From Mogibacterium sp. (GTDB lineage: Bacteria; Bacillota; Clostridia; Peptostreptococcales; Anaerovoracaceae), in NCBI GenBank assembly GCA_017512365.1, contig JAFWGQ010000001.1, positions 30,863 to 94,862 of the forward strand: a stretch of 64,000 nucleotides of DNA, read 5' to 3'. Position 1 is the stretch's first letter, and every line of letters begins with the position of its first letter. The position numbers and the translations under genes are program-made. Below the pieces are notes generated by a model. The model saw only the letters and a list, made by a program, of their open reading frames with translations, searched no databases and was not told the origin of the DNA. This document shows, one piece after another, positions 4,701 to 30,702 of the stretch.

Positions 4701-6524
4701 ATGGTAGAAAAAATGAAAATGGTTCACATCGTAACGACTGCCTCCCGTAAGGACGAGATGCTCAGAGCGCTCCGCGATGTGGGAGTGATGCATCTCGCTG
4801 AAAAGCAAAGTGCAGATCGTGAAGTATCGGAACGCTTCCAGACACTGTCGCGTACGGCGATGGCCCTCGGCGACTATGCTGAAAAGAAGCAGGAGCCTGC
4901 GGGCGAGATACTGAGCGATGATGAATTCAACAAAATGTATGCGGGCGTGCTCGAAGCGATCGACCGCAAGGCGGCTCTCGGCCAGGAGATAAGCAGTGCG
5001 AATACCGAGATCGACAGGATCCGGGCGTGGGGCGAATTCTCGCCGGCTGAGCTCGAAGCTCTCAGAAGCGAGGGATACGATCTTCACTTCTACCGCATGG
5101 GCGACAAGGAGCTCGAAGCGGCTCTCGGAAACGAGGACGTGAAGCTCATAAGGCTTGCCCCTGTGGACAAGCAGGCGGCTGTTGCTGTATTCGGCACACT
5201 TCCTGCGGAGATCCCTGCAACGGAGTTCATGCCGCCGGAAAAGAGCATGTCGGAGTTCGAGGCGGACATAAAGACCGCCGAGGCGGGCATAGAAGAGTGC
5301 AATGCGACCCTGAAGGAAGCCTCAGTATACGGAAAGAGCTTCAAGGCTCAGCTGCTCAAGGCCAGCAACGAGCTCAATTATGCGACTGCTGATGCGACTG
5401 TCCGGGGCGATGAGGACTTCGTCTGGCTCTCGGGGTACATCCCTGAAGTCGACATGGACAAGTTCAGGGCGATGGCAGAGCAGACACAGTGCGCATGGGC
5501 TGCAGATGATGTAGCAGAAGACGACGAGCAGATACCTACAAAGCTGAGATATAACAAGGTATCGAAGCTTATCGAGCCGGTATTCAACATCCTCGGCATA
5601 CTGCCGGGATACAGGGAGCAGGACGTCTCGCTGTGGTTCCTCCTGTTCTTCACTCTGTTCTTCGCAATGATAATCGGAGACGGAGGATACGGCGTGCTCA
5701 TACTGCTCGGCACCATAGCTCTCAGAGTAAAGACGAAAGAGAGCTCAACGGTGACCTTCCTGCTCTTCGTACTGTCGATCGCCACCATCGTGTGGGGCGC
5801 CGTCACAGGCACATGGTTCGGCATGGAGAGCGCCATGAAGGTGCCGTTCCTGAAGGCTCTGGTCATACCGAGTCTGGCTACGTACCCTGAGTACTTCGGC
5901 CTTACAAGCAACGCGACGCAGAACGCGATAATGAAATTCTCGTTCTCGATAGGCGCGGTACAGATGGCTCTCGGATCCATCCTGGCCATAAAGGACAAGC
6001 TGGCCAAGAAAGACCTTTCGTGGGTCGCGAATCTCGGATGGGCTATAGCGGTAATCGCGATGTACCTGCTGGCTCTGAATCTGGTCATACACGACCCGAT
6101 ACCTCTGAAGCCGGTATTCGCCATGATAGGCGTAGCCTTCGTCCTGGTGCTGCTCTTCGGCGGAATGTCGCCTGAACTGAGCTTCGCGCAGGGACTGAAG
6201 GCGGGTCTTGCGAATGCGTTCACGGACTTCCTTGACACCATCAGCTGCTTCGGCAACGTAATGAGTTACATCAGACTGTTCGCGGTCGGCATGGCCGGCG
6301 TCGCGATCTCGCAGAGCTTCAACGGGATCGCGGCCAGCATGAGCGGTCCTCTGATCATACTCGGTGTCCTGGTCGTGCTTATAGGCCACGCACTCAACAT
6401 AATAATGTGTTTCCTGTCGGTAGTCGTTCACGGCGTGCGTCTGAACGTACTCGAGTTCTCGGGCCAGGTCGGTCTCGAGTGGACAGGACTCCCTTACGAG
6501 CCATTCAAAGAGCTTGAAAAATAA
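4701..6524 (+). CDS. atpI: V-type ATP synthase subunit I (membrane a-subunit)
   Basis: 607 aa with a soluble N-terminal half and a polytopic C-terminal half containing MSYIRLFAVGMAG (the conserved Arg helix). Operon context supports the call. Confidence 0.9.
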   Translation: MVEKMKMVHIVTTASRKDEMLRALRDVGVMHLAEKQSADREVSERFQTLSRTAMALGDYAEKKQEPAGEILSDDEFNKMYAGVLEAIDRKAALGQEISSANTEIDRIRAWGEFSPAELEALRSEGYDLHFYRMGDKELEAALGNEDVKLIRLAPVDKQAAVAVFGTLPAEIPATEFMPPEKSMSEFEADIKTAEAGIEECNATLKEASVYGKSFKAQLLKASNELNYATADATVRGDEDFVWLSGYIPEVDMDKFRAMAEQTQCAWAADDVAEDDEQIPTKLRYNKVSKLIEPVFNILGILPGYREQDVSLWFLLFFTLFFAMIIGDGGYGVLILLGTIALRVKTKESSTVTFLLFVLSIATIVWGAVTGTWFGMESAMKVPFLKALVIPSLATYPEYFGLTSNATQNAIMKFSFSIGAVQMALGSILAIKDKLAKKDLSWVANLGWAIAVIAMYLLALNLVIHDPIPLKPVFAMIGVAFVLVLLFGGMSPELSFAQGLKAGLANAFTDFLDTISCFGNVMSYIRLFAVGMAGVAISQSFNGIAASMSGPLIILGVLVVLIGHALNIIMCFLSVVVHGVRLNVLEFSGQVGLEWTGLPYEPFKELEK

Positions 6525-6584
6525 CGTTACTTTGATCCCAAGCGCTGCGAAGGATCTGAAAACTAAAAGAAAAGGAGAACAATT

Positions 6585-7022
6585 ATGAATCTTGCACTTA
6601 TAGGTATGGCTGCGGCCCTTGGTTTATCTGCTGCCGGTTCGGCGTTCGGTGCCGGATTTGCCGGTATGTCTGCAGTAGGAGCATGGAAGAAGTGCTACGC
6701 TAGCGGCAAGCCTGCTCCGTTCATCATGATCGCTTTCACCGGTGCGCCTCTTACACAGACCATTTACGGCTTTCTGCTGATGAACTTCATCAACGGCAGC
6801 GCTGCCGACAATCCGGGACTCGCTCTCGGCGTAGGTCTCTTCGGAGGACTCGCGATCGGCATGTCCGCTCTGTTCCAGGGCAAGTGCGCGGCGGCATCCG
6901 CTGACGCTCTCGGCGCAACAGGAAAAGGTACTGCGAACTACTTCATCGTTATCGGTATCGTAGAGACAGTAGCTCTGTTCACGCTCGTATTCGGACTGCT
7001 GCTTCTCAACAGCGCCGGCTAA
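6585..7022 (+). CDS. atpK: V-type ATP synthase subunit K (proteolipid c-ring)
   Basis: 145 aa, Gly/Ala-rich and very hydrophobic (GVGLFGGLAIGMSALFQG). It is the last gene of the operon. Confidence 0.9.
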   Translation: MNLALIGMAAALGLSAAGSAFGAGFAGMSAVGAWKKCYASGKPAPFIMIAFTGAPLTQTIYGFLLMNFINGSAADNPGLALGVGLFGGLAIGMSALFQGKCAAASADALGATGKGTANYFIVIGIVETVALFTLVFGLLLLNSAG

Positions 7023-7052
7023 TAAGCGCTTCATAAACTGAATATTATTGAA

Positions 7053-7084
7053 ACAGGAGCCTTTGACCGGGCTCCTGTTTTTAT
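7053..7084 (+). terminator. Rho-independent terminator of the V-ATPase operon
   Basis: Stem ACAGGAGCC / GGCTCCTGT followed by a T-run. Confidence 0.8.
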
Positions 7085-7102
7085 GCAGGCTGACGATGAC
7101 AT

Positions 7103-7126
7103 AAAAAACCGGCATTGCTGCCGGCT
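7103..7126 (-). terminator. Rho-independent terminator for the convergent minus-strand gene
   Basis: Stem CCGGCA-ttgc-TGCCGG preceded by AAAAAA on the plus strand, which is a T-run on the minus strand. Confidence 0.65.
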
Positions 7127-7158
7127 GTTATTATGTTAAGATTTTTGACGTTATATTA

Positions 7159-8169
7159 TTATTTTTCCCATGAAACCTGGTCGCGGTAGCTTCCGAACGG
7201 CGTTACCGGCAGGTATACATTCATGAGGAAATTGCGGTCCTCGATGTGTTTTTCATCCATGCTCAGTCTTATGCAGACAGCCCAGCCGCCGTCGAATGTC
7301 AGCTGCAGAGTGTCCCTGGATATCTCGCCGTACTTGCCGGTAGCCATCCTTACATCCAGAAGTTCGGTCGGGAACCTTACAGGCTGGATGGTATGGTTCG
7401 AGTTGTTAGGCATGCATCCGAGCCCGCCGTGGGAATTGACGCAGCCGATGCGGGTGAGTTCCAGCTCCGGTATAGGCTTTATGAAATAGTAGTCGTATTT
7501 GCCGTAGAAGAAATCGAGCATCTTCTGCGGAGCCTCCGGATGATACCTGCAGATGCGCGGCAGCTCGTCGCCTATGGCCTTCAGCATCGGTCCGATGAGC
7601 TTGCCGTAGAGGAATTCATCCTCGGACAGAAGCTCGTGCCATGTTTCGGTGTCGTACGGCTCAAAGGACTGAAGTATCTCATTCATGTCCATGAAGTACT
7701 CGTTCGAGCAAGGCACATGGAATATCCTTTCGCCGAAATCGTCTATCTCGTTGAACCTGCTGACGAAGTTGTCCTCGCGCATGTTAGGGCTGCGGTCTGC
7801 GACCTTCATCGACGAGAGCACGTTGGCGTCGCTCTTGACGGAGATCGAGACATGCCAGTCGAACTCCGGACGCTCGATGAGTATCTCGCCGAATGAGTCC
7901 TCTTCGAGCTCTCTCACGAGATAGTTGAAACGGATCCTGAGAGGCTCGCCTCCCTTGAGGAAGACATACGGCTCTTTTGACGTGATGCGCCTGACGGCAG
8001 GTCTTGCCTGTCTGTCGGCGAGCTTTTTGTCAGCGCCGCGGGCCTTGTCCCAGACTTTCAGAAAATACTTGTACTCCTCGTCATCCCTGAACTCATAAGG
8101 GACATTCCTGTCCTGCAGTATGCTCTCGAGTGACCATGCTGTAGCTGCTACGAGCAGTTCGTTTATCAT
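7159..8169 (-). CDS. Hypothetical protein, 336 aa, no family recognised
   Basis: A long ORF convergent with the V-ATPase operon, with its own terminator. Composition looks like a normal soluble protein, with no TM segment or signal peptide. Confidence 0.6.
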   Translation of the reverse strand: MINELLVAATAWSLESILQDRNVPYEFRDDEEYKYFLKVWDKARGADKKLADRQARPAVRRITSKEPYVFLKGGEPLRIRFNYLVRELEEDSFGEILIERPEFDWHVSISVKSDANVLSSMKVADRSPNMREDNFVSRFNEIDDFGERIFHVPCSNEYFMDMNEILQSFEPYDTETWHELLSEDEFLYGKLIGPMLKAIGDELPRICRYHPEAPQKMLDFFYGKYDYYFIKPIPELELTRIGCVNSHGGLGCMPNNSNHTIQPVRFPTELLDVRMATGKYGEISRDTLQLTFDGGWAVCIRLSMDEKHIEDRNFLMNVYLPVTPFGSYRDQVSWEK

Positions 8170-8352
8170 AATGAAGTCCTCCGTACATATATATTGAATG
8201 AAGATATCTTTTGCTTAAGTCAGCTCGGCAACGCCGTTACAATCTATATTATAGACTATGAAAGGTAAAAAAACACTAATGCGTGATGTTTTTAACCTGC
8301 ATTTTTTATGCTAAAATTATCTGGAATCAGGGGCAACTGCGAGAGGAGCGAC

Positions 8353-9843
8353 ATGACGGACATAACCAGGCTGCAGAACGGCAGCGATATAAGAGGCATT
8401 GCTTCGGAAGGCGTGCCGGGCGAGGAAGTAAACATCACGAAGGAGACGGCAGGCCAGATAACGGGGGCTTTCTGCTACTGGCTTTCAAAGAAGGTACAGA
8501 AGAACCCTGTAATGCTCAGCATATGCGTGGGAATGGATCCGAGAATCTCGGGGCCTGAGCTGAAGGAGGGCGTGTTCGAGGCCATAAGCCTCTGGGGCGC
8601 TCACGGCAGCGATGCCGGCATAGCGACGACTCCGGCGATGTTCATGTCGACCGTCCTTCCGTATTTCGAATTCGACGGCGCTGTCATGATCACGGCCAGC
8701 CATCTTCCGTACAACAGGAACGGCTTCAAGTTCTTTACAGCCGAGGGAGGCCTCGGGAAGGAGGATGTCGCCGAGATACTCAGGCTCGCCGCGCGCTACA
8801 ACTTCATAGGCGGAGTCTATGATGAGGATCCGGTCAACGTGATGCCGATGTACGCTGCATATCTGCGCCAGATGATAACTCAGGGCCTGGCTGATGTGCC
8901 CGGCTACCTGAAGGGCATGCACATCGTGGTGGACGCAGGCAACGGAGCCGCGGGATTCTTCGCGACAGATGTCCTGGAGCCTCTCGGCGCCGACATAAGC
9001 GGGAGCCTTTATCTTGAGCCTGACGGCCGCTTCCCGAACCATCCGGCGAACCCGGAGGACAGGGAGGCCATGGCCTCGATATGCGGGGCGGTGAAGGACA
9101 GCGGCGCTGACCTCGGCATCATCTTCGATACCGACGGTGACAGATCGGCCGCGGTCGGACCGGGAGGAAAGCCCATAGCACGAAACGAGATGGTCGCTCT
9201 TGCGGCGGCGCTCGCGGCGGAGGATCATCCGGGCGGCACCGTAGTCACGGACAGCATCACTTCCGACGAACTGCACGACTTCCTCGAAAAGAAGCTGGGG
9301 CTCAGGCACTTCAGATATAAAAGGGGCTACAGGAACGTCATCGGCAAGGCACAGGAGCTCCGCGATCAGGGAGAGGACGCCTTTCTCGCCATAGAGACAT
9401 CCGGCCACGCCGCGTATTCCGACAATTATTTTCTTGACGACGGAGCCTTTCTCGCGGTGCAGATCGTGGTCAACGCCGCAAGGCTGAAGCGCAAGGGCAG
9501 GGACATAACGGCCCTGATCAAAGGACTGGGGTCGCCTGCCGAGTCGGAGGAGTTCAGGCTGAAGATAAAGGCCGCGGACTTCAGGAAGTACGGCATGGGC
9601 GTGCTCGAGGATTTCGAGAAATGGGCCGAGTATTCGAACAGATTCGAGGTCGTCAGACCGAACTACGAGGGAGTGAGAGTCAATTACAGGCTCGACGGCG
9701 CGTGCGGATGGTTCCTCTTAAGGATGTCGCTTCACGATCCGGTGATGCCTCTCAACATCGAATCTGACGAAAAGGGCGGAGTCGAAAAGGCCCTCGCAGA
9801 GATACGTGAATTCATGAAGGGATATAAAGAGATAGAGTTTTAA
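8353..9843 (+). CDS. Phosphomannomutase/phosphoglucomutase-family phospho-sugar mutase
   Basis: It has the active-site loop ITASHLPYNRNGFKFF, the metal loop FDTDGDR and four-domain length. ATG 8353 is preceded by GAGAGGAG, whereas the ORF-track start 8308 has no RBS. Confidence 0.85.
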   Translation: MTDITRLQNGSDIRGIASEGVPGEEVNITKETAGQITGAFCYWLSKKVQKNPVMLSICVGMDPRISGPELKEGVFEAISLWGAHGSDAGIATTPAMFMSTVLPYFEFDGAVMITASHLPYNRNGFKFFTAEGGLGKEDVAEILRLAARYNFIGGVYDEDPVNVMPMYAAYLRQMITQGLADVPGYLKGMHIVVDAGNGAAGFFATDVLEPLGADISGSLYLEPDGRFPNHPANPEDREAMASICGAVKDSGADLGIIFDTDGDRSAAVGPGGKPIARNEMVALAAALAAEDHPGGTVVTDSITSDELHDFLEKKLGLRHFRYKRGYRNVIGKAQELRDQGEDAFLAIETSGHAAYSDNYFLDDGAFLAVQIVVNAARLKRKGRDITALIKGLGSPAESEEFRLKIKAADFRKYGMGVLEDFEKWAEYSNRFEVVRPNYEGVRVNYRLDGACGWFLLRMSLHDPVMPLNIESDEKGGVEKALAEIREFMKGYKEIEF

Positions 9844-12957: not shown

Positions 12958-12993
12958 TACACTGACTGACTTAGGTGTATAGTTGTCGGCCGA

Positions 12994-13022
12994 GGGGTGC
13001 TGCATTACAGATGCGGCACCCC
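12994..13022 (+). promoter_or_regulatory. Intercistronic stem-loop between the binding-protein and permease genes
   Basis: GGGGTGCTGCA / TGCGGCACCCC, an 11-bp stem with one G-U pair and no U-tract. Such hairpins typically stabilise the upstream mRNA segment. Confidence 0.5.
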
Positions 13023-13051
13023 GAAGCCACGTTTAAAGGAAAGAAGAAACC

Positions 13052-13936
13052 ATGAATTTTTTGACTAATATCATTTCGGGCCTCAGCCTTGGAAGCGTAT
13101 ACGCGATCATAGCGCTCGGATACACGATGGTCTATGGTATCTCCAAGATGCTGAACTTCGCTCACGGAGATGTCATCATGATCGGCGGCTACATGTCGTT
13201 CGTCATGACGCAGTACGTCGGGATGAACGGATGGCTGGCTCTTCTGGTGGCCATGGTGGTATGTACGGTGCTCGGAATCATGATCGAGAGGCTGGCGTAC
13301 AGGCCTCTCAGGGGAACCGGCTCTCTCGCCGTGCTGATCACGGCGATAGGCGTGTCGTACTTCCTTCAGAACATCGCTCTTCTCATCTGGGGTGCCAACC
13401 CTAAGATGTTCACGAGCCTGTTCAAGGGGATGAGCCCTATACACGCGGCCGGCGGCAGACTGACCATCACTCCTGAGTCGCTGTTCACTATCGCGGCCAA
13501 CATCGTGATCATGATCGCACTGACGCTCTTCGTAAGCAAAAGCAAGGCCGGCAAGGCCATGAGAGCCGTTTCCGAAGACAACGGAGCGGCCCAGCTGATG
13601 GGCATCAATGTCAATCAGTCCATATCGCTCACTTTCGCGATCGGCTCGGGTCTCGCGGCCGTCGCAGGAGTGCTGATGTGCTCCGCATATCCGGTGCTTA
13701 TGCCTACCACAGGCGCCATGCCGGGCATCAAGGCGTTCACAGCCGCGGTATTCGGCGGCATCGGTTCCATACCGGGAGCGATGATCGGAGGACTGATCCT
13801 CGGCATAATCGAGATCTTCTCCAGAGCGTACATCTCCACGGAGCTCTCGGACGCCATCGTGTTCGCTTGTCTCATCATCGTGCTTCTTGTCAAGCCTACG
13901 GGACTGCTCGGCAAGAAGGTCAGCGAGAAAGTGTAG
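13052..13936 (+). CDS. livH: Branched-chain amino-acid ABC transporter permease LivH
   Basis: 294 aa and polytopic, with the typical N-terminus LSLGSVYAIIALGYTMVYG. Confidence 0.9.
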   Translation: MNFLTNIISGLSLGSVYAIIALGYTMVYGISKMLNFAHGDVIMIGGYMSFVMTQYVGMNGWLALLVAMVVCTVLGIMIERLAYRPLRGTGSLAVLITAIGVSYFLQNIALLIWGANPKMFTSLFKGMSPIHAAGGRLTITPESLFTIAANIVIMIALTLFVSKSKAGKAMRAVSEDNGAAQLMGINVNQSISLTFAIGSGLAAVAGVLMCSAYPVLMPTTGAMPGIKAFTAAVFGGIGSIPGAMIGGLILGIIEIFSRAYISTELSDAIVFACLIIVLLVKPTGLLGKKVSEKV

Positions 13937-13943
13937 GTGGGTC

Positions 13944-15089
13944 ATGGCAGACAGAATTCTGAAACTTAAATCGATAAGCACCAGGGGCCTCAAGAATGCC
14001 GTAAAGGGCAACGAGTACCGCAGGGAAGCTTCCATTTCGTACGGGATCCTGATCGTCGGGTACATCCTGCTTTCGATCGGCGCGGCCACGGGCCTTATCG
14101 GACATAACCTTCAGGGACAGTTCGTCCCTATCTGCGTATATATCTCGCTGGCTGTTTCGCTGAATCTGGTAGTAGGCATATCCGGAGAGCTCTCGCTCGG
14201 ACACGCGGGCTTCATGGCCGTTGGCGCGTTCAGCGGCATAATAATGGAGCGCATACTTCTCGCGCACATGAGCTTTGAGCCGGTCATCATGATACTGTCG
14301 CTTCTCTTCGGAGCATTCATGGCGGCGATCGCGGGCTTCATAATCGGTATCCCTATCCTGGGACTCCGCGGAGACTATCTTGCGATCGTAACGCTCGCGT
14401 TCGGAGAGATCATCAGGAATTTCATGAACGTGCTCTACTTCGGCCTTGACGACAAGGGGCACCTGAAGTTCGCGTTCAACCATACAATCGACGGCATCGA
14501 CAACAGCCAGAGGATCATCACCGGCGCTATCGGCGCGACCGGTACCAAGACGATAGCCACATTTACATGGGGCATACTGCTTTGCCTTTTCACCGTGTTC
14601 GTCGTGCTCAACATGAAGAACTCCAAGCAGGGCAGAGCGATAATGTCCATCAGGGACAACCGCATAGCGGCGGAATCCATCGGACTCGATGTCAGGAAGT
14701 ACAAACTCATGGCGTTCGTCGTGAGCGCGGCGCTCGCCGGGATGGCAGGCTGCCTGTTCGGACTGAATTACAGCACGCTTGTGCCGCTGAAGTTCAACTT
14801 CAATACATCGGTGCTCATACTGGTATTCGTAGTGCTCGGAGGAGTAGGCAATATCTGGGGCGGCATCATCGCGGCTGCGGTGCTTACCATACTGCCTGAG
14901 ACATTCAGACAGTTCGCCGATTACAGGATGCTGACCTATGCGATCGTGCTCATCCTCGTCATGATCTGCACGTACAATCCGACCATCAAGGCCAGGGTCA
15001 CGTCCATATGGAACAGGATAAATCCTTTCAAAAAGCGTGACGACAGGAATAAGCCGAAAAAGAAAAAGACCGGAAAGGAGGCTGCATAA
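13944..15089 (+). CDS. livM: Branched-chain amino-acid ABC transporter permease LivM
   Basis: Polytopic, with SGELSLGHAGFMAVGAF and GDYLAIVTLAFGEI. ATG 13944 was chosen because the ORF-track start 13887 overlaps livH. The C-terminal tail is Lys-rich. Confidence 0.85.
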   Translation: MADRILKLKSISTRGLKNAVKGNEYRREASISYGILIVGYILLSIGAATGLIGHNLQGQFVPICVYISLAVSLNLVVGISGELSLGHAGFMAVGAFSGIIMERILLAHMSFEPVIMILSLLFGAFMAAIAGFIIGIPILGLRGDYLAIVTLAFGEIIRNFMNVLYFGLDDKGHLKFAFNHTIDGIDNSQRIITGAIGATGTKTIATFTWGILLCLFTVFVVLNMKNSKQGRAIMSIRDNRIAAESIGLDVRKYKLMAFVVSAALAGMAGCLFGLNYSTLVPLKFNFNTSVLILVFVVLGGVGNIWGGIIAAAVLTILPETFRQFADYRMLTYAIVLILVMICTYNPTIKARVTSIWNRINPFKKRDDRNKPKKKKTGKEAA

Positions 15090-19273: not shown

Positions 19274-20530
19274 ATGGCAGAATTTGACCTTACACCTGAA
19301 GCGGTAAACGATGCAGTCAACGACGCAGCGGAAGAAACAGCAACTGCAATGGCTGCAGATGTACATGAAGTCGCAGCTCAGGCGGCTTCGCTCGATACGG
19401 TTGCTGCGCCTGTCATCGACTTCGGACAAGAAGAAGTCAGAAAGGACGAGGAGCCTCTTGCGCAGTTCACTGCCGATGAGCAGAGACAGATCAGGACCGT
19501 TGCCGACAAGATCGACATCACCGACAGCAACGCGGTGCTCAGCTACGGAGCCAGCGCGCAGCGCAAGGTGTCAGATTTCGCGGACGGAGCTCTCCAGAGC
19601 GTAAGAGCAAAGGACATGGGCGAGACAGGCCAGATCCTCACATCGCTGCTCGTCGAGCTCAAGACGAACGGCGAAGAAAAGAAGAGCCTGCTCGGCAAGC
19701 TGTTCGGAAGCGCCGAGAAGAATTTCGAAAAGCTCAAAGCCCAGTACAGCACGACAGAGGCCAACATCGACAGACTCGTCAAGCTTCTCGAGGATCATGA
19801 GCAGCAGCTCAGGAAGGATATCATCCAGCTCGATAAGCTCTATGACAAGAACAAGCTCTACTTCAAGGAGATCTCGATGTACATAGAGGCCGGCAAGCTC
19901 GCTATAGAGAAGGCCAGAAACGAGACTCTCCCGCAGCTTGAGGCAAAGGCAAAAGAGACTAACTCGGCAGAAGACATCCAGGCAGCTCAGGATTTCGCCG
20001 ACATGATCACGAGATTCGAGAAGAAGATCTACGACCTCGAACTTTCGAGGACGGTATGCCTCCAGTCCGCGCCTGAGATCAGGATGGTACAGAACTCGGA
20101 TACCATCATGTCCGAGAAGATCCGCAGCACGATACTGAACGTCATCCCGATGTGGAAGACCCAGATGGTGCTCGCTCTCAACAACTATCATACTCAGAAG
20201 GCCATCGAGGCCCAGCAGGCGGTCACGGACGCTACGAACGAGATGCTCACAAAGAACGCCGAAGCGCTCCACCAGAGCACGGTCGATACAGCGAGAGCAA
20301 GCGAGAGAGGCATCGTGGACATCGAGACGCTGCAGCACACCAACGAGCAGCTGATAAGCGCACTCAACGAGATCCAGCAGATCCAGGAGGACGGCAAGGT
20401 CGCAAGAGCGGCGGCAGAGCAGGAGCTCGCGAGGATCGAGCAGGAGCTCAAGGACAAGATGCTCGGCATCGCTGCAAGCGCCGGCAGGTCCGCAGAAGAG
20501 GTCGCGGCTGCACGCAGCACAGGCGAATAG
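19274..20530 (+). CDS. TelA/YaaN-family toxic anion resistance protein
   Basis: 418 aa and long-helical. Sequence blocks (NAVLSYGASAQRKVSDFAD, YIEAGKLAIEKA) resemble TelA-family proteins as I recall them. RBS AAGGAGG lies upstream. Confidence 0.75.
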   Translation: MAEFDLTPEAVNDAVNDAAEETATAMAADVHEVAAQAASLDTVAAPVIDFGQEEVRKDEEPLAQFTADEQRQIRTVADKIDITDSNAVLSYGASAQRKVSDFADGALQSVRAKDMGETGQILTSLLVELKTNGEEKKSLLGKLFGSAEKNFEKLKAQYSTTEANIDRLVKLLEDHEQQLRKDIIQLDKLYDKNKLYFKEISMYIEAGKLAIEKARNETLPQLEAKAKETNSAEDIQAAQDFADMITRFEKKIYDLELSRTVCLQSAPEIRMVQNSDTIMSEKIRSTILNVIPMWKTQMVLALNNYHTQKAIEAQQAVTDATNEMLTKNAEALHQSTVDTARASERGIVDIETLQHTNEQLISALNEIQQIQEDGKVARAAAEQELARIEQELKDKMLGIAASAGRSAEEVAAARSTGE

Positions 20531-20565
20531 CGTCTGAACGCAGCGCATAGCACATGAACAGATCT

Positions 20566-20610
20566 GGTGTAAAATCCTGATAACTATCAGCGGTTTTACA
20601 CCATTTTTTC
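20566..20610 (+). terminator. Rho-independent terminator
   Basis: GGTGTAAAA ... TTTTACACC stem followed by ATTTTTT. Confidence 0.75.
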
Positions 20611-20658
20611 AAAATCCTGTGTAATTCCGCTTTTCACAAACAGATCGTAAGGATTGAG

Positions 20659-21696
20659 ATGGACAACAAAGGCAGCCGCAAAAACAAAAGGTCGGAGACA
20701 GGGCGAAAGAGGGCGTTCGCCGTTTTTGCGCTGATCCTTGTATGCTGTCTGTGCCTTGCTGCGGTGAAATACCGCGAAGGCAGAGACATGGCTGCTGATG
20801 ATACAGGAAAGCAGCAGAATGCTTCTGTCGGAGCCGGACCTGCGGTATCCGGCGGAGAGATCGGCGATACGGCGTCGCCGGACGCGGAGCATCTGCCTGA
20901 ATACGACGGCCGCCGCTATGTGACCGTGAACGGAAGCGTGCCTGATTTTCCTGACGAGGTCATCGAAAAGGCATCGCTTGTAAAGAACGGCGACAGATAT
21001 AAGACAGAAGGCAGTCTGCCGGGCAGGGTGGATCCGTCCGGACTTACTCCGTACGAGTACTACGGCAGCCTGGACGAGCTGGGCAGGTGCACATGCGCGT
21101 ACGGATGCCTCGGGGAGGAGACCATGCCTGAGAAGGGGCAGGAGAGAGGTGATATATCGTCCATACATCCGTCAGGCTGGGCAAAAGCCCAGAACTGGGA
21201 GCGCTGCCACCTGATAGCGTGGGCTCTTTCGGCCGAGAACGACAATCCTGAGAACCTCATCACCGGCACTCATTACCTGAATTACGAAGGCATGAGGCCT
21301 TTTGAGGAGGAAGTCGGGCATTACATATGGAACACTGGAAACCATGTCCTTTACATGGTGAAGCCGTGGTTCAGCGGTGACGAGCTCGTGGCGAGGGGCG
21401 TACAGATGACCGCCCGCTCAGTCGAGGACAACGGTGCAGGCGTATCCTTCAACGTATATTGCTTCAATGTGACGCCGAACGCTTCTGTAGATTACATGAC
21501 GGGCATCGTCACGACAGAAGAGCAGGCGCAGCAGGAGCCGAGGCTCTATGTGGTCAATAAAAGGTCGAAGGTGTTCCACTATCCGAGCTGCGAAGGCGCG
21601 CAGTCCATATCGCCTCATAACAGGGAGGAAGTCACCGCGACCAGAGTCGAGCTAACTTCCCGGGGGTACACGCCGTGCGGTTACTGCGAACCATGA
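20659..21696 (+). CDS. Membrane-anchored DNA/RNA non-specific endonuclease (EndA/NucM-like) with a C-terminal Ada-like zinc domain
   Basis: N-terminal TM anchor. Nuclease core WERCHLIAWALSAENDNPENLITGT. The C-terminal FHYPSCEG...GYTPCGYCEP matches the Cys4 pattern of the Ada N-terminal Zn site. Confidence 0.7.
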   Translation: MDNKGSRKNKRSETGRKRAFAVFALILVCCLCLAAVKYREGRDMAADDTGKQQNASVGAGPAVSGGEIGDTASPDAEHLPEYDGRRYVTVNGSVPDFPDEVIEKASLVKNGDRYKTEGSLPGRVDPSGLTPYEYYGSLDELGRCTCAYGCLGEETMPEKGQERGDISSIHPSGWAKAQNWERCHLIAWALSAENDNPENLITGTHYLNYEGMRPFEEEVGHYIWNTGNHVLYMVKPWFSGDELVARGVQMTARSVEDNGAGVSFNVYCFNVTPNASVDYMTGIVTTEEQAQQEPRLYVVNKRSKVFHYPSCEGAQSISPHNREEVTATRVELTSRGYTPCGYCEP

Positions 21697-24561: not shown

Positions 24562-24584
24562 GCGACGCATGCGTCAGTTTTTTC
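24562..24584 (+). terminator. Rho-independent terminator after the EAL-GGDEF gene
   Basis: Palindrome GACGCATGCGTC followed by AGTTTTTT. Confidence 0.7.
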
Positions 24585-24627
24585 AAGGAAACATGTTTTA
24601 AGTTCAGTTTTTACGCTGATTGTAGTA

Positions 24628-25893
24628 ATGTTAAGTTCTATGGGAGACAATATCAGAGAAAATGAAGAATATGTAAGCGTCTTTGACAGAATGCTGGACA
24701 TGGACAAAAGAAGGGCCTTTATAGAAAGGAAAAGGTCCTCATACAGCGTTTCGGAAGACGAGGCGGCTCAGCTCGAGGCCTACATATTGTCCGACAGGTG
24801 CACTGATGAGATACAGAGGCTCAGGGAAGGAGACTTCTTCTTCAAACCGCCCGGACTCACGATGCTCCGCAAGAAGAATTCGACAAGGAAGCGCAGGATC
24901 TACAGATTTCGCGACAACGAGAGCATGCTGCTCAAGCTCATGGCTTTCGTGATGCATGATTTCGATTATCTGTTCTCGGATTCGCTGTATTCCTTCCGTC
25001 TGGGAAAGCACATATCCGGCATATTCAATACCGTAAACAAAAATGGCTACAATAAGGACTGCTGGGTCCTCAAGACAGACATACACAGCTACGGCGACAA
25101 CGTGGATCCGGAAATACTCAGCGTACAGATGAGAGAACTGCTCGCGGAGAAGGACCCTTCCCTGTTCGCATTTCTGGAAAAGCTGGTCTGCCGGGGCGAG
25201 TACTGGTTCCGCGGCAATCTGGTGCAGGGCCCGACCGGAGCTCTGAGCGGATGCGCTCTCACCAATTTCTTCGAGAACGTATATCTGCTGGACGTCGATG
25301 ACGTGGTCAGACAGAACAGCGTATATTACTGCAGATTCGCCGATGACATCGCGGTGTTCACCGAATCAAAGGCGCAGGCTGAGGTGGTCAGGGAATTCCT
25401 CAGAAAGACCTTCGAGGAAAGAGGTCTTGAGTTCAATGAAGCAAAGACCGATATATGCGCGCCGCGCGAGGGCTTCGATCTGCTCGGGTTCAGGCTCCAG
25501 GACGGCGAGTACGATATCGCCGAGAACTCCCTTGAGAAGATAGAGTGGAAACTGAACCACTATGCGGAAAAGCTGGTGAGAAAGGAGCGCAGGGGCGAAC
25601 TCACAAGAGAGGAAGCCATGCAGCGCATGATCGACAGGGTCGACAGGTACTTCTTCGGAGTCGTCAGAGAGGAAAGAGAGCTGAACTGGGTAGACTGGGC
25701 TTTCAGAATCCTTACAAGGACAGACAGTCTCAAGAGGATAGACGCATGGTCGCAGGAGTGCATAAGGTTCGTCGGCAGCGGCGGCAAGCGCACAGGCGCG
25801 AAATACCGTGTCCGTTACAAGGACATGCGGCGCATGGGTTACCGCACGCTTGTGCACGCGTATTACCACGGATTCGAAAGAAGAACTGAATAA
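24628..25893 (+). CDS. Stand-alone reverse transcriptase (RNA-directed DNA polymerase), class undetermined
   Basis: Seven RT blocks are readable:
- Blocks 1/2: RKRRIYRFRDNESMLLKLMAFVM.
- Block 2a: SLYSFRLGKH.
- Block 3: VLKTDIHSYGDNV.
- Block 4: GALSGCALTNFFENVYLLDVDD.
- Block 5: YYCRFADDIAVF.
- Block 6: GLEFNEAKTDI.
- Block 7: FDLLGFRL.
These are followed by a helical tail of about 110 aa. The start is uncertain (24628 or 24640), and neither has a clear Shine-Dalgarno. Confidence 0.85.
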   Translation: MLSSMGDNIRENEEYVSVFDRMLDMDKRRAFIERKRSSYSVSEDEAAQLEAYILSDRCTDEIQRLREGDFFFKPPGLTMLRKKNSTRKRRIYRFRDNESMLLKLMAFVMHDFDYLFSDSLYSFRLGKHISGIFNTVNKNGYNKDCWVLKTDIHSYGDNVDPEILSVQMRELLAEKDPSLFAFLEKLVCRGEYWFRGNLVQGPTGALSGCALTNFFENVYLLDVDDVVRQNSVYYCRFADDIAVFTESKAQAEVVREFLRKTFEERGLEFNEAKTDICAPREGFDLLGFRLQDGEYDIAENSLEKIEWKLNHYAEKLVRKERRGELTREEAMQRMIDRVDRYFFGVVREERELNWVDWAFRILTRTDSLKRIDAWSQECIRFVGSGGKRTGAKYRVRYKDMRRMGYRTLVHAYYHGFERRTE

Positions 25894-25899
25894 GATATA

Positions 25900-26051
25900 C
25901 CGGCGTGAGCCGGGATATGGGCGGGTGCGCTTGAAAAAGCGCGTCTGCAAGAGACGGTTGAGGCGGCCATGAAAAGGCTATGCAGACGGCCGCCGCCGGG
26001 ACTGTTTTGACAGCCGAGGCCTTGAATGGATTCCCGCCCATATCCGGACCC
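25900..26051 (+). repeat. Tandem structured repeat, copy 1 (candidate RT-associated ncRNA unit)
   Basis: 152 nt starting 7 nt after the RT stop codon. Predicted helices:
- CCGGC-GUGA-GCCGG hairpin.
- 13-bp closing stem GGAUAUGGGCGGG / CCCGCCCAUAUCC.
- GCGCUU-GAAA-AAGCGC hairpin.
- GUCUGCA / UGCAGAC helix.
- GGCGGCC / GGCCGCC complementarity. Confidence 0.8.
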
Positions 26052-26084
26052 ACGAAGGAACAGAAGGAAAGAACAAAAAAAGAT

Positions 26085-26236
26085 CCGGCGTGAGCCGGGA
26101 TATGGGCGGGTGCGCTTGAAAAAGCGCGTCTGCATGAGACAGTTGAGGCGGCCTTGAAAAGGCTATGCAGACGGCCGCCGCCGGGACTGTTTTGACGGCC
26201 GCAGCCTTGAATGGACCCCCGCCCATATCCGGGCCC
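26085..26236 (+). repeat. Tandem structured repeat, copy 2
   Basis: Offset by exactly 185 nt from copy 1. My manual alignment gives 9 substitutions and no indels over 152 nt. The copies are separated by the purine-rich spacer ACGAAGGAACAGAAGGAAAGAACAAAAAAAGAT. Copy 2 ends 39 nt before the ABC exporter start codon. Confidence 0.8.
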
Positions 26237-26274
26237 GCATCGCAGTGGGTCGAATAAGCGTACAGGGAAAGCAG

Positions 26275-28458
26275 ATGAAGGTACCAGTAGTCATACAGAC
26301 ACATCCGGGAGAGAATTCCATCGCGGCGATCGCCACGATACTCTCTTACTATGGCAAGGTAGTCCCGCTTTCCGAAATGAGGAAGTACAATATCACCTCG
26401 AGAGGCGGTTCCACTCCGGAACAGATGAAGGACATGGCATCGCGCTATGACCTCGAGACGGAGATAGTGGAAGCGGATATGGAACAGCTCGCCGGCATGA
26501 CTATGCCTGTGGTCGCGAAGTGGAAGCACAAGTACTGGGTGATAGTTAAGAAGATAGGAAGAGGCGTGGTATATCTGTCGGATCCGGCCAAAGGCGAGTA
26601 TGAGATGTCGATCGACGGATTCAGCAGCAAATTCGACGGAGCCGTACTCGTGATGAAGCCGGCCGAAGGCTTCAAAAGGGGAGGCAAAAGGCCGTCCCTT
26701 TACGGCCTCATCATGAAGCGTCTGGACGGCGTTCAGCGGCAGATGGTCATGCTGGGCATCCTCAACGCCATGGCTGTGGGTCTCAGTCTGCTGATGGTCA
26801 GGTCCACGCGTATGATGCTCGATGTGGCGGGCAATGAGAAAGGAAAAGAGGACTGGGTGCAGTCGCTGCTGTCAGGAGGCTTTGACGACCGCTCTACGTA
26901 CAGGTTCCTCGTGGTCTCGATGTGCGTCATACTGGCTGCCATGACCGCGGTCAACGTGATCAAGACTCTTCTTATATACAGGACAGCCTATTCAGTAGCG
27001 GCGCGCTCGGGAGCAGGACTGTTCAGGAAGATCCTGATGCAGCCCATGGTATTCTTCGAGCAGTACAGATCAGGCGAACTGATACAGCGAATGGAGGACA
27101 ACTCGAAGCTCGATCTGTCTCTGGTGAGGACCATAGTTCCGCGCCTGCTCGATTTCGTGATGACCATCATATATTTCGTGCTCATGCTCAGCTACAACTG
27201 GAAAGTGGCGCTTATCTGCATTCTGGTTGAGATCGTTTACATGGTCGTATCGCTTCGCATGAAGAACCGCATCACGATGCAGGCCAGGAGCAACGCCGTC
27301 AGTACCGGCATGATGAACACATCGATACTGAACGGGCTGGACACCATAGATACCATCAAGTCCGGAGGTCTCGAGAGGATGTTCTTTTCGGACTGGAACA
27401 GATCCCAGATCGAATTCGATGAGGCGCGTGAGGGCGGCATAAGCATCACTGCCATCACGGGAGCGATCGACAGCATGCATTCGCTCTTCTCGCAGGCCGC
27501 ACTGCTCTTCGCCGGAGCCTACTTCATGATACAGGGACAGTTTACCTTCGGTATAATGGCAGCTCTGCAGACTGTGCTCGGGAACTTCAGGAACAGCTTC
27601 TCGAACTGCATCTCCATGACCAACAATCTGCAGAAGACGAGAACCGAGATAGAACGCATAGAAGACATAAGAGAAAGAGACAGCCTGCCTGAAAAACATC
27701 TGGCCGCTGATTCGGAGCCGGATAAGCTCAGGGGGCGTCTTGATGTGTCGCATCTGTGCTACAGATACCAGGAGGGCGAAGCTCCTGCCCTTGATGATGT
27801 GAGCTTCAGCGCCAAACCGGGCGAGCTTATCGCCGTGGTCGGATCCTCCGGATGCGGCAAGAGCACTCTCCTGAAGTGCCTGCTCTCACTTTACGAACCG
27901 GAGAGCGGCAATATATGGTACGACGGACACACAAGAGACGAGATCCCGGATGTCGTGTTCCGTTCATCGGTCACGGCAGTCGACCAGGAGTGCGTCGTAT
28001 TCGAGGACAGCATAGCGAACAACCTGACGATGTGGGACCCGACGGTCGAGGAGTACGAGATGATACTCGCCGCCCGTGACGCCCACATACACGAGAGGAT
28101 CATCAGGGACAGAGATGGGTATTACGCCGGGATGTACGAGAACGGCAGGAACTTTTCCGGCGGAGAGCTGCAGAGGCTTGAGCTCGCCAGGGCTCTGTCC
28201 ACGGAATCCACCATACTGCTGCTCGATGAATTCACATCGGCGCTCGACGCTGTTACCGAGGAAGCTGTATTCAAGTCCATAAGACTGAAGGCTACCACAT
28301 GCATAATAGTCGCTCACAGGCTGTCGACGGTGGCCTCGTGCGACCACATACTCGTAATGGACAAGGGCAGGATCGTGCAGAGGGGAACGCACGAAGAACT
28401 GTATAACACCGAAGGCATTTACAGAGATCTTCTGGAAGTGCCTGGGGAGAAGATCTGA
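26275..28458 (+). CDS. ABC exporter (permease + ATPase) with an N-terminal C39-peptidase-like domain lacking the catalytic Cys
   Basis: The N-terminal VVIQTHPGENSIAAIATILSYYG ... HKYWVIV ... LSDPAKG resembles bacteriocin-exporter C39 domains, but no Cys occurs in roughly the first 215 residues. Six-TM core, Walker A GSSGCGKST, signature FSGGELQRL, Walker B LLLDEF. ATG 26275 was preferred over 26245. Confidence 0.85.
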   Translation: MKVPVVIQTHPGENSIAAIATILSYYGKVVPLSEMRKYNITSRGGSTPEQMKDMASRYDLETEIVEADMEQLAGMTMPVVAKWKHKYWVIVKKIGRGVVYLSDPAKGEYEMSIDGFSSKFDGAVLVMKPAEGFKRGGKRPSLYGLIMKRLDGVQRQMVMLGILNAMAVGLSLLMVRSTRMMLDVAGNEKGKEDWVQSLLSGGFDDRSTYRFLVVSMCVILAAMTAVNVIKTLLIYRTAYSVAARSGAGLFRKILMQPMVFFEQYRSGELIQRMEDNSKLDLSLVRTIVPRLLDFVMTIIYFVLMLSYNWKVALICILVEIVYMVVSLRMKNRITMQARSNAVSTGMMNTSILNGLDTIDTIKSGGLERMFFSDWNRSQIEFDEAREGGISITAITGAIDSMHSLFSQAALLFAGAYFMIQGQFTFGIMAALQTVLGNFRNSFSNCISMTNNLQKTRTEIERIEDIRERDSLPEKHLAADSEPDKLRGRLDVSHLCYRYQEGEAPALDDVSFSAKPGELIAVVGSSGCGKSTLLKCLLSLYEPESGNIWYDGHTRDEIPDVVFRSSVTAVDQECVVFEDSIANNLTMWDPTVEEYEMILAARDAHIHERIIRDRDGYYAGMYENGRNFSGGELQRLELARALSTESTILLLDEFTSALDAVTEEAVFKSIRLKATTCIIVAHRLSTVASCDHILVMDKGRIVQRGTHEELYNTEGIYRDLLEVPGEKI

Positions 28459-30624
28459 ATGGGCATATATACCGAGGCGCTCAAAAACCGCGAAAGAAAC
28501 GACCTTGAGCTCGAGCGCAACGCCGAGCTGAGGATGATGAACCGTCTGGACAGAGATCCGAAATTCAATGATGCAGACGGAGCGTTCTTTGCGTTGAATC
28601 ATATCCTCGGCAAATTCGGCCTGTCGGCGAACGAGGTGCACGGCTACTCCGGCACTCAGGAGATGCTGGACCTCGCCCTCGATCCGCTGGCCATAATATA
28701 TGATATCGTTGACCTCAGCGATACGGAATGGACAAAGCGCACCGAGTACATACTGGGATTCATGGAGGACGGCAGGGCCGTCGTCCTGAGCCCTGCGGTC
28801 AGAGGATACACATACAGATGCCTGACTGACGGTTCGCATGGATGGGTGAGGAAAGACACCCCTCTGCAGCAGTTCGCATACGCGATACAGAGACCTCTCG
28901 ACAGAAGGGTCAGGAACCTGGTCACTCTCGCGATATATACACTGCATCTCGTTTCGGCAAGAGACATAATCGCGATAGGCGGAGCGACACTGGCGATCTC
29001 TCTGCTCGGACTCATCACGCCGAAGATGAACCAGTACGTGCTCCGCGAGATCGTGCCCATGGGAACCGACGGCTACACTCTTCTGTTCAGGGCTTTCGGT
29101 CTCTTCCTCTCTGCCGGCATGGTCAAAGGCGCCATCCAGGCCGTCAAGAGCGTGAGTCTGGGCAAGATGCGCATAAGGATATCCTCGGAGGTGCAGTCCG
29201 CGGTCATGACAAAGGTACTGACGCTGCCGCAGTCTTTCTTTACTCAGGTATCCACGGGCAAGCTCTCAAAACAGATATCGAACGCCAGATTCCTGAGCGA
29301 ACAGATAATAAGCTTCGTTCTCGGAGCTTCTCTGACAGCGGTGTTCTCGCTTGTATACATACCTCAGATGGCCGGGTTTTCAAGGGTCCTTCTGATACCC
29401 GCGGTCGTCATACTGATCATCAGGAGCGTCTACACACTGATGGCCGGATACCTCTTTGCCGACAACGAAAGGAGGAGGCAGGAGGCCGAGATGGACGAGA
29501 GGGCCTTCCTCTTCTCCACGTTCAAGGGCATACAGAGGATAAAGGAGAGCGGAGCCGAAAAGAGGATATTCTCGAGATGGACATCGAAGTACAGCGCCGT
29601 GCTCGACTGCGACCTGAACATGCCTGTAGCGCTTTCGCTCGAGGACGTAGTGCTCAGCTTCCTGAGCTCGCTCGGTACTGTGATACTCCTCTCGCTCATC
29701 ATTCCTGCCGGAATAGACAAGGCGGACTATATCGCGTTCACGAGCGCGTTCGGCCTGATCTCGGCGGCAGTCACGGAACTGATGGACGCGCAGAGAAAGC
29801 TCTTCCTCATGAGACCCATGATGGAGCAGCTCAGAGGACTGTTCGAGTCCGAACCGGAGGATGCCCCTGAAAAGAGCGTAGTCAGAAACATCAGAGGCAG
29901 CATAAAGGTAGAGAATGTCAGCTTCGCGTACGACGAAGGCAGGTTCGGATGCCTCAACGGAGTCTCGCTGGATATCGCCGCGGGAGAGAAGGTCGCGATC
30001 GTAGGCGAGAGCGGCTGCGGAAAGAGCACTCTTTTAAAGATCATACTCGGAGCGCTCAAGCCTGACGAGGGAGCCGTGCTCATAGACGGCATGCCTCTCG
30101 AATCTCTGAATCTGAGATCCTACAGAAGGCACATCGGAGCTGTTTTCCAGTTCAGCAAGGTGATGCCGGGAACGATATATTCCAATATCGCTTTCTGTCC
30201 GCATCCGGTCAGCCTCGAAGAGGCGAAGGCCGCGGCCGAAAAGGCCGACATAGCTGAGACCATAGAAAGGCTGCCTCTCGGCTACGAGACAGAGATATCC
30301 GACTCGAACACCGGAGGCTTCTCCGGCGGTCAGAGACAGAGGCTTCTGCTTGCCAGGGCCTTCGCTTCGAAGCCGGACATCATGATACTCGACGAGGCGA
30401 CGTCCGCACTCGACAACATTTCCCAGAACAAGGTGCTCGATTCGGTATATAAGGAAAACTGCACTGTAGTGATGGTCGCGCACAGGCTGTCGACGGTCAG
30501 AGACTGCGACAGGATAGTCCTGATAAAGGAAGGCCGCATAGCCGAACAGGGCACCTACGACGACCTCATGAAGCTTCGCGGAGAATTCTATGAGCTCATG
30601 CGCAGGCAGTCCGGAACGCACTGA
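28459..30624 (+). CDS. ABC exporter (permease + ATPase), partner subunit with a non-peptidase N-terminal domain
   Basis: TGAATG junction with the upstream gene. Walker A GESGCGKST, signature FSGGQRQRL, Walker B IMILDEATSALD, H-loop VAHRLST. The N-terminal domain of about 150 aa has no C39 motifs. Confidence 0.85.
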   Translation: MGIYTEALKNRERNDLELERNAELRMMNRLDRDPKFNDADGAFFALNHILGKFGLSANEVHGYSGTQEMLDLALDPLAIIYDIVDLSDTEWTKRTEYILGFMEDGRAVVLSPAVRGYTYRCLTDGSHGWVRKDTPLQQFAYAIQRPLDRRVRNLVTLAIYTLHLVSARDIIAIGGATLAISLLGLITPKMNQYVLREIVPMGTDGYTLLFRAFGLFLSAGMVKGAIQAVKSVSLGKMRIRISSEVQSAVMTKVLTLPQSFFTQVSTGKLSKQISNARFLSEQIISFVLGASLTAVFSLVYIPQMAGFSRVLLIPAVVILIIRSVYTLMAGYLFADNERRRQEAEMDERAFLFSTFKGIQRIKESGAEKRIFSRWTSKYSAVLDCDLNMPVALSLEDVVLSFLSSLGTVILLSLIIPAGIDKADYIAFTSAFGLISAAVTELMDAQRKLFLMRPMMEQLRGLFESEPEDAPEKSVVRNIRGSIKVENVSFAYDEGRFGCLNGVSLDIAAGEKVAIVGESGCGKSTLLKIILGALKPDEGAVLIDGMPLESLNLRSYRRHIGAVFQFSKVMPGTIYSNIAFCPHPVSLEEAKAAAEKADIAETIERLPLGYETEISDSNTGGFSGGQRQRLLLARAFASKPDIMILDEATSALDNISQNKVLDSVYKENCTVVMVAHRLSTVRDCDRIVLIKEGRIAEQGTYDDLMKLRGEFYELMRRQSGTH

Positions 30625-30677
30625 CTTTTGATAAACTGAAAATAAACTAGGACATCAGAATGTTTTTAATTGTATTT

Positions 30678-30702
30678 ATGCCTCCTCGCCGGGGGCATTT
30701 TC
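30678..30702 (+). terminator. Rho-independent terminator after the ABC pair
   Basis: ATGCCTCC-tcgcc-GGGGGCAT followed by TTTT. Confidence 0.7.

Follow-up and report, generated by a model that had tools for sequence, protein, structure and literature searches.

A UG26 reverse transcriptase and an RT-5-like noncoding RNA keep company with a bacteriocin-type ABC exporter pair in rumen and gut Clostridia

What would a reverse transcriptase (RT) do beside a structured RNA and a pair of membrane exporters? This question is raised by a 64,000-nucleotide (nt) stretch of DNA from Mogibacterium sp. (contig JAFWGQ010000001.1), referred to here as the window, in which an RT gene, two repeats and two genes for ATP-binding cassette (ABC) exporters, ABC1 and ABC2, follow one another in that order on the + strand (Table 1). 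An initial annotation of the window had described the RT open reading frame (ORF), two 152-nt structured repeats, the spacing of these elements and a coupled ABC pair, all of which were confirmed in the sequence, and had proposed that together they represent a candidate new system of RT and noncoding RNA (ncRNA). The window was compared with related loci, which carry L-numbers where they need to be told apart. The partnership of RT, ncRNA and exporter is a conserved one, shared by many Clostridia of the rumen and gut. Our favored reading, held tentatively and at a probability of roughly 45%, is that the window contains one local form of a conserved module consisting of a UG26 RT, an RT-5-like ncRNA and an ABC exporter, which would act in ncRNA-templated synthesis of complementary DNA (cDNA) through the exporter, most probably in defense.

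The RT of the window matched the PADLOC profile RT_UG26 over profile positions 2-395 of 398 with an E-value of 5e-100, compared to 1e-28 for the next-best group, and seven further RTs, three of which were reached from the ABC side, matched the same profile, likewise over its full length, at E-values of 1e-79 to 1e-103. As judged from these profile matches, the protein is a full-length member of UG26, a group in class 2 of the UG/Abi RTs, and what had been called an orphan RT therefore belongs to a group that is already catalogued (PMC9226505). RVT_1 was the only Pfam domain found in it, and the UG26-type RTs compared, at about 400-420 amino acids (aa), likewise have no fused domain. Residues D151, R236, D239 and D240 (FADD motif) are invariant across 23 RT homologs. 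An AlphaFold2 (AF2) model of the RT was compact and RT-only, with a predicted local distance difference test score (pLDDT) of 88.8. Foldseek superposed this model over its whole length on the group II intron RT GsI-IIC, the best match, with template modeling (TM) scores of 0.72-0.74, and returned G2L4 (0.66), DRT9 (0.56-0.60) and DRT2 (0.46) as lower matches. The model thus points to a complete enzyme of the template-copying type, resembling the RTs of group II introns.

The RT family is small: a search of 5.8 billion proteins gave 65 clusters at E<1e-10. Its named sources among rumen and gut Clostridia are Mogibacterium, Anaerovoracaceae, Eubacterium, Oscillospiraceae, Lachnospiraceae JC7 and Saccharofermentans, and one metagenome-assembled genome of Eggerthellaceae falls outside this list. 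In the published survey, UG26 comprises 35 members, and the sole neighbor reported for the group is a YcjD/Vsr-like gene, present for 9 of the 35; no ncRNA is described, and ABC transporters go unmentioned in the main text (Mestre et al. 2022, PMC9226505).

The loci collected by searching with the RT differ from the published description of UG26 in showing a consistent set of partners, namely the ncRNA and the ABC exporter pair. Both ABC orthologs were found in 18 of 20 informative loci, and with the ncRNA included the genes occur in the orders RT>RNA>ABC1>ABC2, ABC1>ABC2>RT>RNA, RT>RNA<ABC2<ABC1, <ABC2<ABC1 RT>RNA, RNA>RT>ABC1>ABC2 and RT>ABC1>ABC2<RNA, such that in some loci the ABC genes run toward the RT and in others away from it. 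The flanking genes differ from locus to locus, and the linkage is retained down to about 32% RT identity. The conserved linkage that the initial annotation had left to be looked for in the neighborhoods of RT homologs was therefore present, in several orders, and the four parts were found together throughout the range of UG26 diversity that was sampled. When look-ups were started from ABC1 instead, a UG26 RT was encountered in three of six loci (L057, L059 and L060). One of these, L057, in which ABC1 is 70% identical to that of the window and the RT only 32%, is a clear case of module shuffling and counts in favor of the proposed module. Experiments on the module are feasible, as it is present in a cultured isolate, Lachnospiraceae bacterium JC7 (L048).

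The ncRNA is represented in the window by direct repeats that are 94% identical and lie 185 nt apart, the first beginning at the 7th base past the RT stop codon and the second ending 39 nt short of ATG 26275, the likelier start of ABC1. On the + strand, both copies folded better than shuffled sequences (z = -5.1 for copy 1 and -4.4 for copy 2), and a covariance model (CM) scored them at 145 bits (E=6e-29) and 142.5 bits, respectively. No further copy was found in the 64 kilobases (kb) of the window beyond this tandem array beside the RT. Among the related loci, the CM search placed a homologous ncRNA next to the RT in nearly every one. The ncRNA is about 140 nt in length, with a core of about 120-125 nt, and is closed by stem P1 (GGGCGGG/CCCGCCC), which extends to 17 base pairs in the window. 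The remaining elements are a hairpin, P2; a helix, P3 (GUCUGCA/UGCAGAC), which forms a pseudoknot with P4 (GGCGGC/GCCGCC plus ACAGU/ACUGU); and a short, variable hairpin, P5, at the base of which the conserved UUUGA and UUGAA blocks are able to pair. The blocks AAAGGCU, UUUUGA and UUGAAUG are invariant.

Covariation was computed on an alignment of 26 ncRNA sequences and compared to slid controls and 500 shuffles. Paired cells reached 94%, compared to 31-57% in the slid controls, and compensatory changes were observed in 29 of 36 pairs, compared to 7-12 in the slid controls; none of the 500 shuffles matched the observed values. In P3, four of the seven pairs show compensatory changes, and as P3 is absent from the covariance model, this support is independent of it. 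The P3 of L057 is more diverged still (GUUUCAG/CUGAAAC). In addition, G-U pairs outnumber A-C pairs by 61 to 2 in the alignment, which identifies the given strand (+ in the window) as the one transcribed, and one of the differences between copies 1 and 2 turns an A-U pair into a G-U pair on the + strand. Taken together, these data show that the structure of the ncRNA is conserved on the given strand.

Where the ncRNA sits relative to its neighbors is less constant. In most loci it lies downstream of the RT on the same strand, while it is found upstream on the same strand in L016, L046, L049 and L057, upstream on the opposite strand in L051, and beyond ABC2 on the opposite strand in L053. One copy is usual; there are two in the window, L002 and L006, and at least two in L007. 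About 3.4 tandem copies follow the RT in L001 (L001:7805-8423), and two copies precede it in L057 (L057:6277-6615), where the duplication arose independently. Such tandem amplification in two lineages hints at selection for dosage or at a process that generates copies. As position, strand and copy number all vary, the tandem duplication and the single operon of the window are local features, although both had first been put forward as traits of the system; most members have a single copy, and an operon bounded by terminators is one of several arrangements.

This variability also bears on whether the repeats have anything to do with the RT. In the window they occupy the 5' region of ABC1, and the 5' hairpin of copy 2 resembles a terminator on the minus strand, as might be expected if they were cis-regulatory leaders, a riboswitch, or repetitive extragenic palindromic (REP) or terminator elements of the ABC operon that are unrelated to the RT. 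Such an explanation is contradicted by the behavior of the element elsewhere, as the ncRNA follows the RT rather than the 5' end of the ABC genes in convergent, divergent and RT-upstream layouts, and is absent from RT-less ABC loci (it was not found in three such loci by CM search, or in L058 when searched again with model R2). Rfam, furthermore, gave RT-5 only and no riboswitch match on the ncRNA. We regard a purely cis-regulatory role as very improbable.

The relationship to RT-5 was distant. At Rfam gathering thresholds there was no match to the ncRNA of the window, and none of 12 loci passed for RT-5. In a relaxed search, the whole 104-position RT-5 model (RF03026) aligned on every copy tested at 15.6-27 bits, compared to a threshold of 45.7; the copies of the window scored 19.8 (25939-26034) and 15.6 bits, and those of L013, L018 and L005 scored 25-27 bits. 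As these scores lie below the gathering threshold, RT-5 cannot be annotated by Rfam here, and it is from the full-model alignments, which fall at the same element throughout, that we read the ncRNA as a probable distant relative of RT-5. RT-5 is one of the motifs RT-1 to RT-19, which occur near RT genes and were left unassigned (Weinberg et al. 2017, PMC5737381). Both it and the ncRNA described here contain GCGCCUGC, AAAAGGCUUUGCAGGC and a 3' hairpin in the same order, and RT-5 was likewise defined by its closeness to RT genes. The Rfam model, in contrast, has neither P1 nor P2, and it shows as a nested hairpin the region for which our covariation data favor the pseudoknot.

The coding potential of the ncRNA was also considered. 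An endless ORF resembling that of neo was rejected, as, across the 16 diverse ncRNAs, no two alignment columns mark off a unit whose length is a multiple of 3 in every sequence, and no reading frame is consistently free of stop codons. A precursor peptide within the repeat was rejected as well, since the + strand AUG ORF (MQTAAAG...) and the minus-strand ORFs (MQTRFF...) are not conserved across clades. The ncRNA therefore holds no conserved ORF.

The remaining partners are the two exporter genes. Pfam assigns Peptidase_C39, ABC_membrane and ABC_tran to ABC1, corresponding to an N-terminal C39-like domain, a transmembrane domain and a nucleotide-binding domain, and ABC_membrane and ABC_tran to ABC2, which has an extra domain in its N-terminal 175 aa. 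This extra domain had no Pfam or PDB sequence match, and a single-sequence AF2 model of it was unusable (pLDDT 41.8). The best-matching families are TIGR03796 for ABC1 (582 bits, below the cutoff of 853) and TIGR03797 for ABC2 (494 bits, below the cutoff of 709), which together represent the NHLP/Nif11 exporter pair. Walker A, Walker B and the H-loop are intact in both nucleotide-binding domains, and the ABC1 signature reads FSGGE. From these features, ABC1 and ABC2 are predicted to form a heterodimeric exporter of the bacteriocin/lanthipeptide type.

The C39-like domain of ABC1 has the LahT150 domain (6mpz) as its closest solved relative. When ABC1 was aligned by phmmer with LahT150 and with PCAT1 (7n87, 4ry2), the catalytic Cys was replaced by Asn (gENSiaa compared to lECGaas) and the catalytic His by Tyr (khkYwviv compared to fnHfvvl or laHfvvi). 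This loss is common to all RT-linked and LanM-linked relatives examined, and the domain is accordingly best described as a putative pseudo-protease. A protein search with the 160-aa domain returned only four fragments. The first ORF start called mechanically for ABC1 is GTG 26245; as homologs begin MK(V/M)PVV, ATG 26275 is the likelier start. At the other end of the gene, the ABC1 stop and the ABC2 start abut as TGAATG (28456-28461), and the two genes are thus predicted to be translationally coupled.

If these parts function together, the steps can be sketched by analogy with DRT2, DRT9 and DRT10: the RT would bind the ncRNA and copy part of it into cDNA, and its activity would be coupled to the membrane exporter, which would serve as the output or effector partner in the way that a SLATT protein does in DRT10 (PMC12632851). 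The likeliest role would be defense against phages or other mobile elements. Several observations weigh against this proposal. The defense-island signal of UG26 was inconclusive (PMC9226505), and the module's neighbors in the window are ordinary genes (TelA, an endonuclease, EAL-GGDEF and sugar uptake). Neither an A-B-A' nor a U-rich template could be identified in the ncRNA. No ABC pair accompanies the RT and ncRNA of L005 in the 1.6 kb upstream and 4 kb downstream that were covered, and L017 has neither ncRNA nor ABC pair within 7 kb of the RT. Distances for the RT and the ABC proteins are only moderately correlated (r of about 0.62), compared to r = 0.94 between ABC1 and ABC2. ABC1 relatives at 64-66% identity are found in LanA-LanM-ABC1-ABC2 clusters that have no RT and no ncRNA (L055 and L056), and as these related pairs with a dead C39 domain serve LanM clusters in the absence of an RT, the exporter would seem to have a conventional job of its own. 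Finally, cargo genes of the double-glycine (GG) leader or Nif11 type occur near the RT in L049, L051, L057 and L009/L012/L019.

The locus without an ABC pair in the sequence covered, L005, would also fit an arrangement in which RT and ncRNA are a self-sufficient defense unit like DRT2 or DRT9, or a selfish retroelement, that is lodged beside the exporter and not functionally coupled to it. RT and ncRNA suffice for DRT2 and DRT9 (PMC9226505). The trees of the RT and of the ABC proteins agree only in part. Nevertheless, a chance lodging is hard to square with an adjacency that outlasts at least six gene orders, changed flanks and RT divergence to 32% identity, or with an ncRNA that, as in L053, can be separated from the RT by the ABC pair. 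Mobility gives a similarly mixed picture. Two similar long palindromes flank the RT-ncRNA unit in L051 and may be a sign that it moves as a cassette, yet no relative of the RT was found among PLSDB plasmids, INPHARED phages or IMG/VR contigs, and the ncRNA of the window is confined to the single two-copy array beside the RT. On balance, we consider an uncoupled unit of this kind unlikely. The L051 palindromes are hairpins at L051:1-100 and L051:1569-1725 that share GATGAGTAGCAGGAC, and the downstream one gives a spurious microRNA match on both strands.

The relatives of the exporter suggest a further possibility, that the module serves the biology of bacteriocins or of peptides that are made on ribosomes and modified after translation (RiPPs), with the RT and ncRNA regulating an exporter of the lanthipeptide/Nif11 type, giving the producer immunity, or supplying or diversifying the cargo. 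The closest RT-less relatives of the ABC pair are those of the two LanM clusters, in which the precursors carry GG leaders of the canonical type. RT-less ABC pairs nest inside the RT-linked ABC clade; in one locus, L058, the pair is present and both RT and LanM are absent. Among the loci compared, those with an RT are mostly without LanM, and the two with LanM are without an RT. Besides the GG-leader and Nif11 precursors near the RT, a cluster that encodes LanC, DUF4135 and a radical SAM enzyme borders the RT of L051, and a 973-aa radical SAM gene that of L059. Set against this, no gene for a GG-leader cargo was detected in the 64-kb window by regular expression, tblastn or a hidden Markov model (HMM) of nine leaders, and most RT loci are the same in this respect. 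The ncRNA, for its part, has no conserved ORF, and no repeat unit yields a conserved endless ORF. L012 contains a third, catalytically intact peptidase-containing ABC transporter (PCAT), besides a peptide that has a GG leader and a 68-aa core rich in Cys, and this separate transporter could serve the cargo of that locus. As the characterized UG/Abi RTs are moreover all antiviral, we think a role in peptide biology unlikely, though it should be kept in mind.

A more specific variant is that reverse transcription feeds secretion, in that the RT and ncRNA make a cargo or a gating molecule for the exporter. Candidates would be a peptide encoded by the cDNA, or an RT-linked nucleic-acid product recognized by the dead C39-like domain. 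If so, the RT and ncRNA would hold the place that LanA and LanM occupy in the sister loci. We consider this variant improbable.

Within the proposed module, for which defense is the favored role, dependence is asymmetric. The RT-ncRNA pair is nearly always beside the exporter, whereas the exporter is found also in RT-less LanM clusters and so has no exclusive tie to the RT; the distribution suggests that it is the RT-ncRNA pair that depends on the exporter and not the reverse. UG26 would in this way gain three partners: a pseudoknotted ncRNA supported by covariation, an ATP-driven exporter heterodimer and a pseudo-protease domain, the last of which could be the point of coupling. Among the partners or effectors of bacterial RTs, an ABC exporter would be of a new kind, and the tie to export loci for lanthipeptides and Nif11 makes it conceivable that reverse transcription is linked to the secretion of peptides in Clostridia of the rumen and gut.

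Table 1. Features of the RT, ncRNA and exporter locus in the window (position 1 is the first nucleotide of the window)
Feature	Position	Strand	Description
Terminator-like hairpin, weak	about 24564-24590	+	GACG-CAUG-CGUC (4-bp stem) then U6, 3' of the EAL-GGDEF gene
RT	24628-25893	+	421 aa; alternative start ATG 24640 possible
Repeat 1 unit	25900-26051	+	152 nt; ncRNA copy 1 at 25909-26049
5' hairpin, repeat 1	25900-25913	+	CCGGC-GUGA-GCCGG; -10.7 kcal/mol, z = -2.5
Repeat 2 unit	26085-26236	+	152 nt; ncRNA copy 2 at 26094-26234
5' hairpin, repeat 2	26085-26098	+	minus-strand reading (26098-26085) terminator-like, hairpin plus T7 (scan)
ABC1	26275-28458	+	full-length ABC exporter, 727 aa from ATG 26275
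ABC1 C39-like domain, predicted catalytically dead	26275-26690	+	Cys to Asn, His to Tyr
ABC2	28459-30624	+	full-length ABC exporter, 721 aa
Intrinsic terminator after ABC2	30678-30698	+	scan: 8 pairs, 5 G-C, then TTTCATT; -12.5 kcal/mol

The boundaries of the locus in the window are of unequal quality. Terminators had been described on both sides, at 24562-24584 and at 30678-30702. The one 3' of ABC2 is convincing, and the terminator scan found no + strand terminator-like site between it and the upstream hairpin, as had been stated; the upstream hairpin itself was not detected by the scan, has a folding energy of -5.9 kcal/mol that is no better than that of shuffled sequences (z = +1.7), and is doubtful as a boundary of the module. 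Within the repeats, the 5' hairpin of repeat 1 competes with the outer extension of P1, the GCCGG bases being used by both, and in repeat 2 the 5' hairpin and the P1 extension are mutually exclusive, as they use the same bases.

Other genes and elements were noted in and around these loci. Genes for a TelA-like protein and for a DNA/RNA endonuclease of the non-specific type (Endonuclea_NS_2), at 19274-21696 of the window, lie upstream of the EAL-GGDEF gene that stands before the module. The RT locus L012 includes a PBECR4 nuclease and a nucleotidyltransferase pair in addition to its PCAT and GG-leader peptide (these features at L012:798-2978, 6520-6846 and 12986-14543, all on the - strand), and L057 an integrase and KilA-N. 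Recurrent neighbors in the related loci are DUF3089 (L046:1328-2314 and L049:7679-8632) and a 5'-nucleotidase C-domain (L056:2778-3416, L057:3057-4853 and L060:3506-5317), and in L059 a HIGH_NTase1 gene and the radical SAM gene (L059:4560-5678 and 6959-9374) stand directly beside the RT. In the LanM clusters of L055 (562-1053 and 4235-6415) and L056 (3951-4175 and 7001-9181), the precursors have GG sites, yet the C39 domain of ABC1 lacks the Cys and His. L051:6017-6304 (-), and the same gene at L052:5961-6248, encodes a protein of the IF-1/S1 fold (Pfam eIF-1a) with an N-terminal double-glycine leader (…LDLDELDAVAGG followed by AGGG…); in L051 it sits in the lanthipeptide cluster beside the UG26 RT, and a translation-factor fold is an odd cargo for a GG leader. 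An FMN (flavin mononucleotide) riboswitch at L018:5359-5473 (115 bits) is unrelated to the module.

How does this module compare to systems that are already described? Three kinds of RT element were rejected as candidates. For retrons, the RT of the window scored 43.5 bits on NF038233, compared to a cutoff of 235. As in retrons, the RT has a neighboring ncRNA, with a long terminal stem that closes it in the manner of the a1/a2 repeats, whereas the ncRNA here varies in position and strand and shows no recognizable msr/msd organization. For group II introns, the score on TIGR04416 was 97.8 bits against a cutoff of 300, no Rfam intron was present in the window, and the resemblance to GsI-IIC is structural only. 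For diversity-generating retroelements, the only repeat pair is the tandem ncRNA, in which the differences are not adenine-specific and both copies are non-coding; there was also no Avd-type match among the nearby annotated ORFs of the window.

On the exporter side, the paired-gene layout is that of the NHLP/Nif11 pairs, and relatives adjoin LanM and GG-leader precursors. In contrast to PCATs such as LahT and PCAT1, the C39 domain of ABC1 is without Cys and His and is C39-like, as in HlyB-type transporters; no HlyD partner is present here.

Class 2 UG RTs work by diverse and unexpected mechanisms: DRT2 makes a gene de novo, DRT9 synthesizes poly-dA from a protein primer, and DRT10 produces repeats in a telomerase-like fashion. 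In DRT2 and DRT9 the RT is bound to a neighboring ncRNA, which corresponds to the RT-adjacent ncRNA found here, and the DRT2 ncRNA is also pseudoknotted (PMC12039810). In the Foldseek comparison, the match to the DRT9 structure was significant. The HMMs of these two systems, however, score far below UG26 on the RT of the window, which also falls far below the cutoffs of the DRT equivalog models. Rolling-circle cDNA gives the neo gene in DRT2, whereas a conserved endless ORF is impossible in the ncRNA described here, which moreover lies downstream of the RT as well as upstream.

The analogy applies especially to DRT10, which joins a UG17 RT and its ncRNA to a SLATT protein as the membrane effector (PMC12632851). 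It shares with the module, as read here from sequence, a class 2 UG RT, a structured ncRNA and a membrane-protein partner, and UG17 was among the next-best PADLOC profiles for the RT of the window (E=5e-25). The two differ in that the partner here is an ATP-driven exporter heterodimer and not a SLATT pore, and in that DRT10 has an A-B-A' template of a kind not identifiable here. The initial annotation had named no known RT system in which the partner is an exporter pair of the NHLP/bacteriocin type, and in agreement with this we came across no publication that connects UG26, or RTs of any other kind, with ABC or bacteriocin exporters, and no report linking UG26 and RT-5 to each other. Of the new system it proposed, the ncRNA and its linkage to the ABC genes are retained, while the RT proved to be catalogued and the ncRNA to be a sub-threshold relative of RT-5. 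UG26 and RT-5 are thus best called catalogued elements, neither of them characterized, and the exporter a new type of partner for systems of the kind that DRT10 represents, in which a class 2 RT and an ncRNA are joined by an effector.

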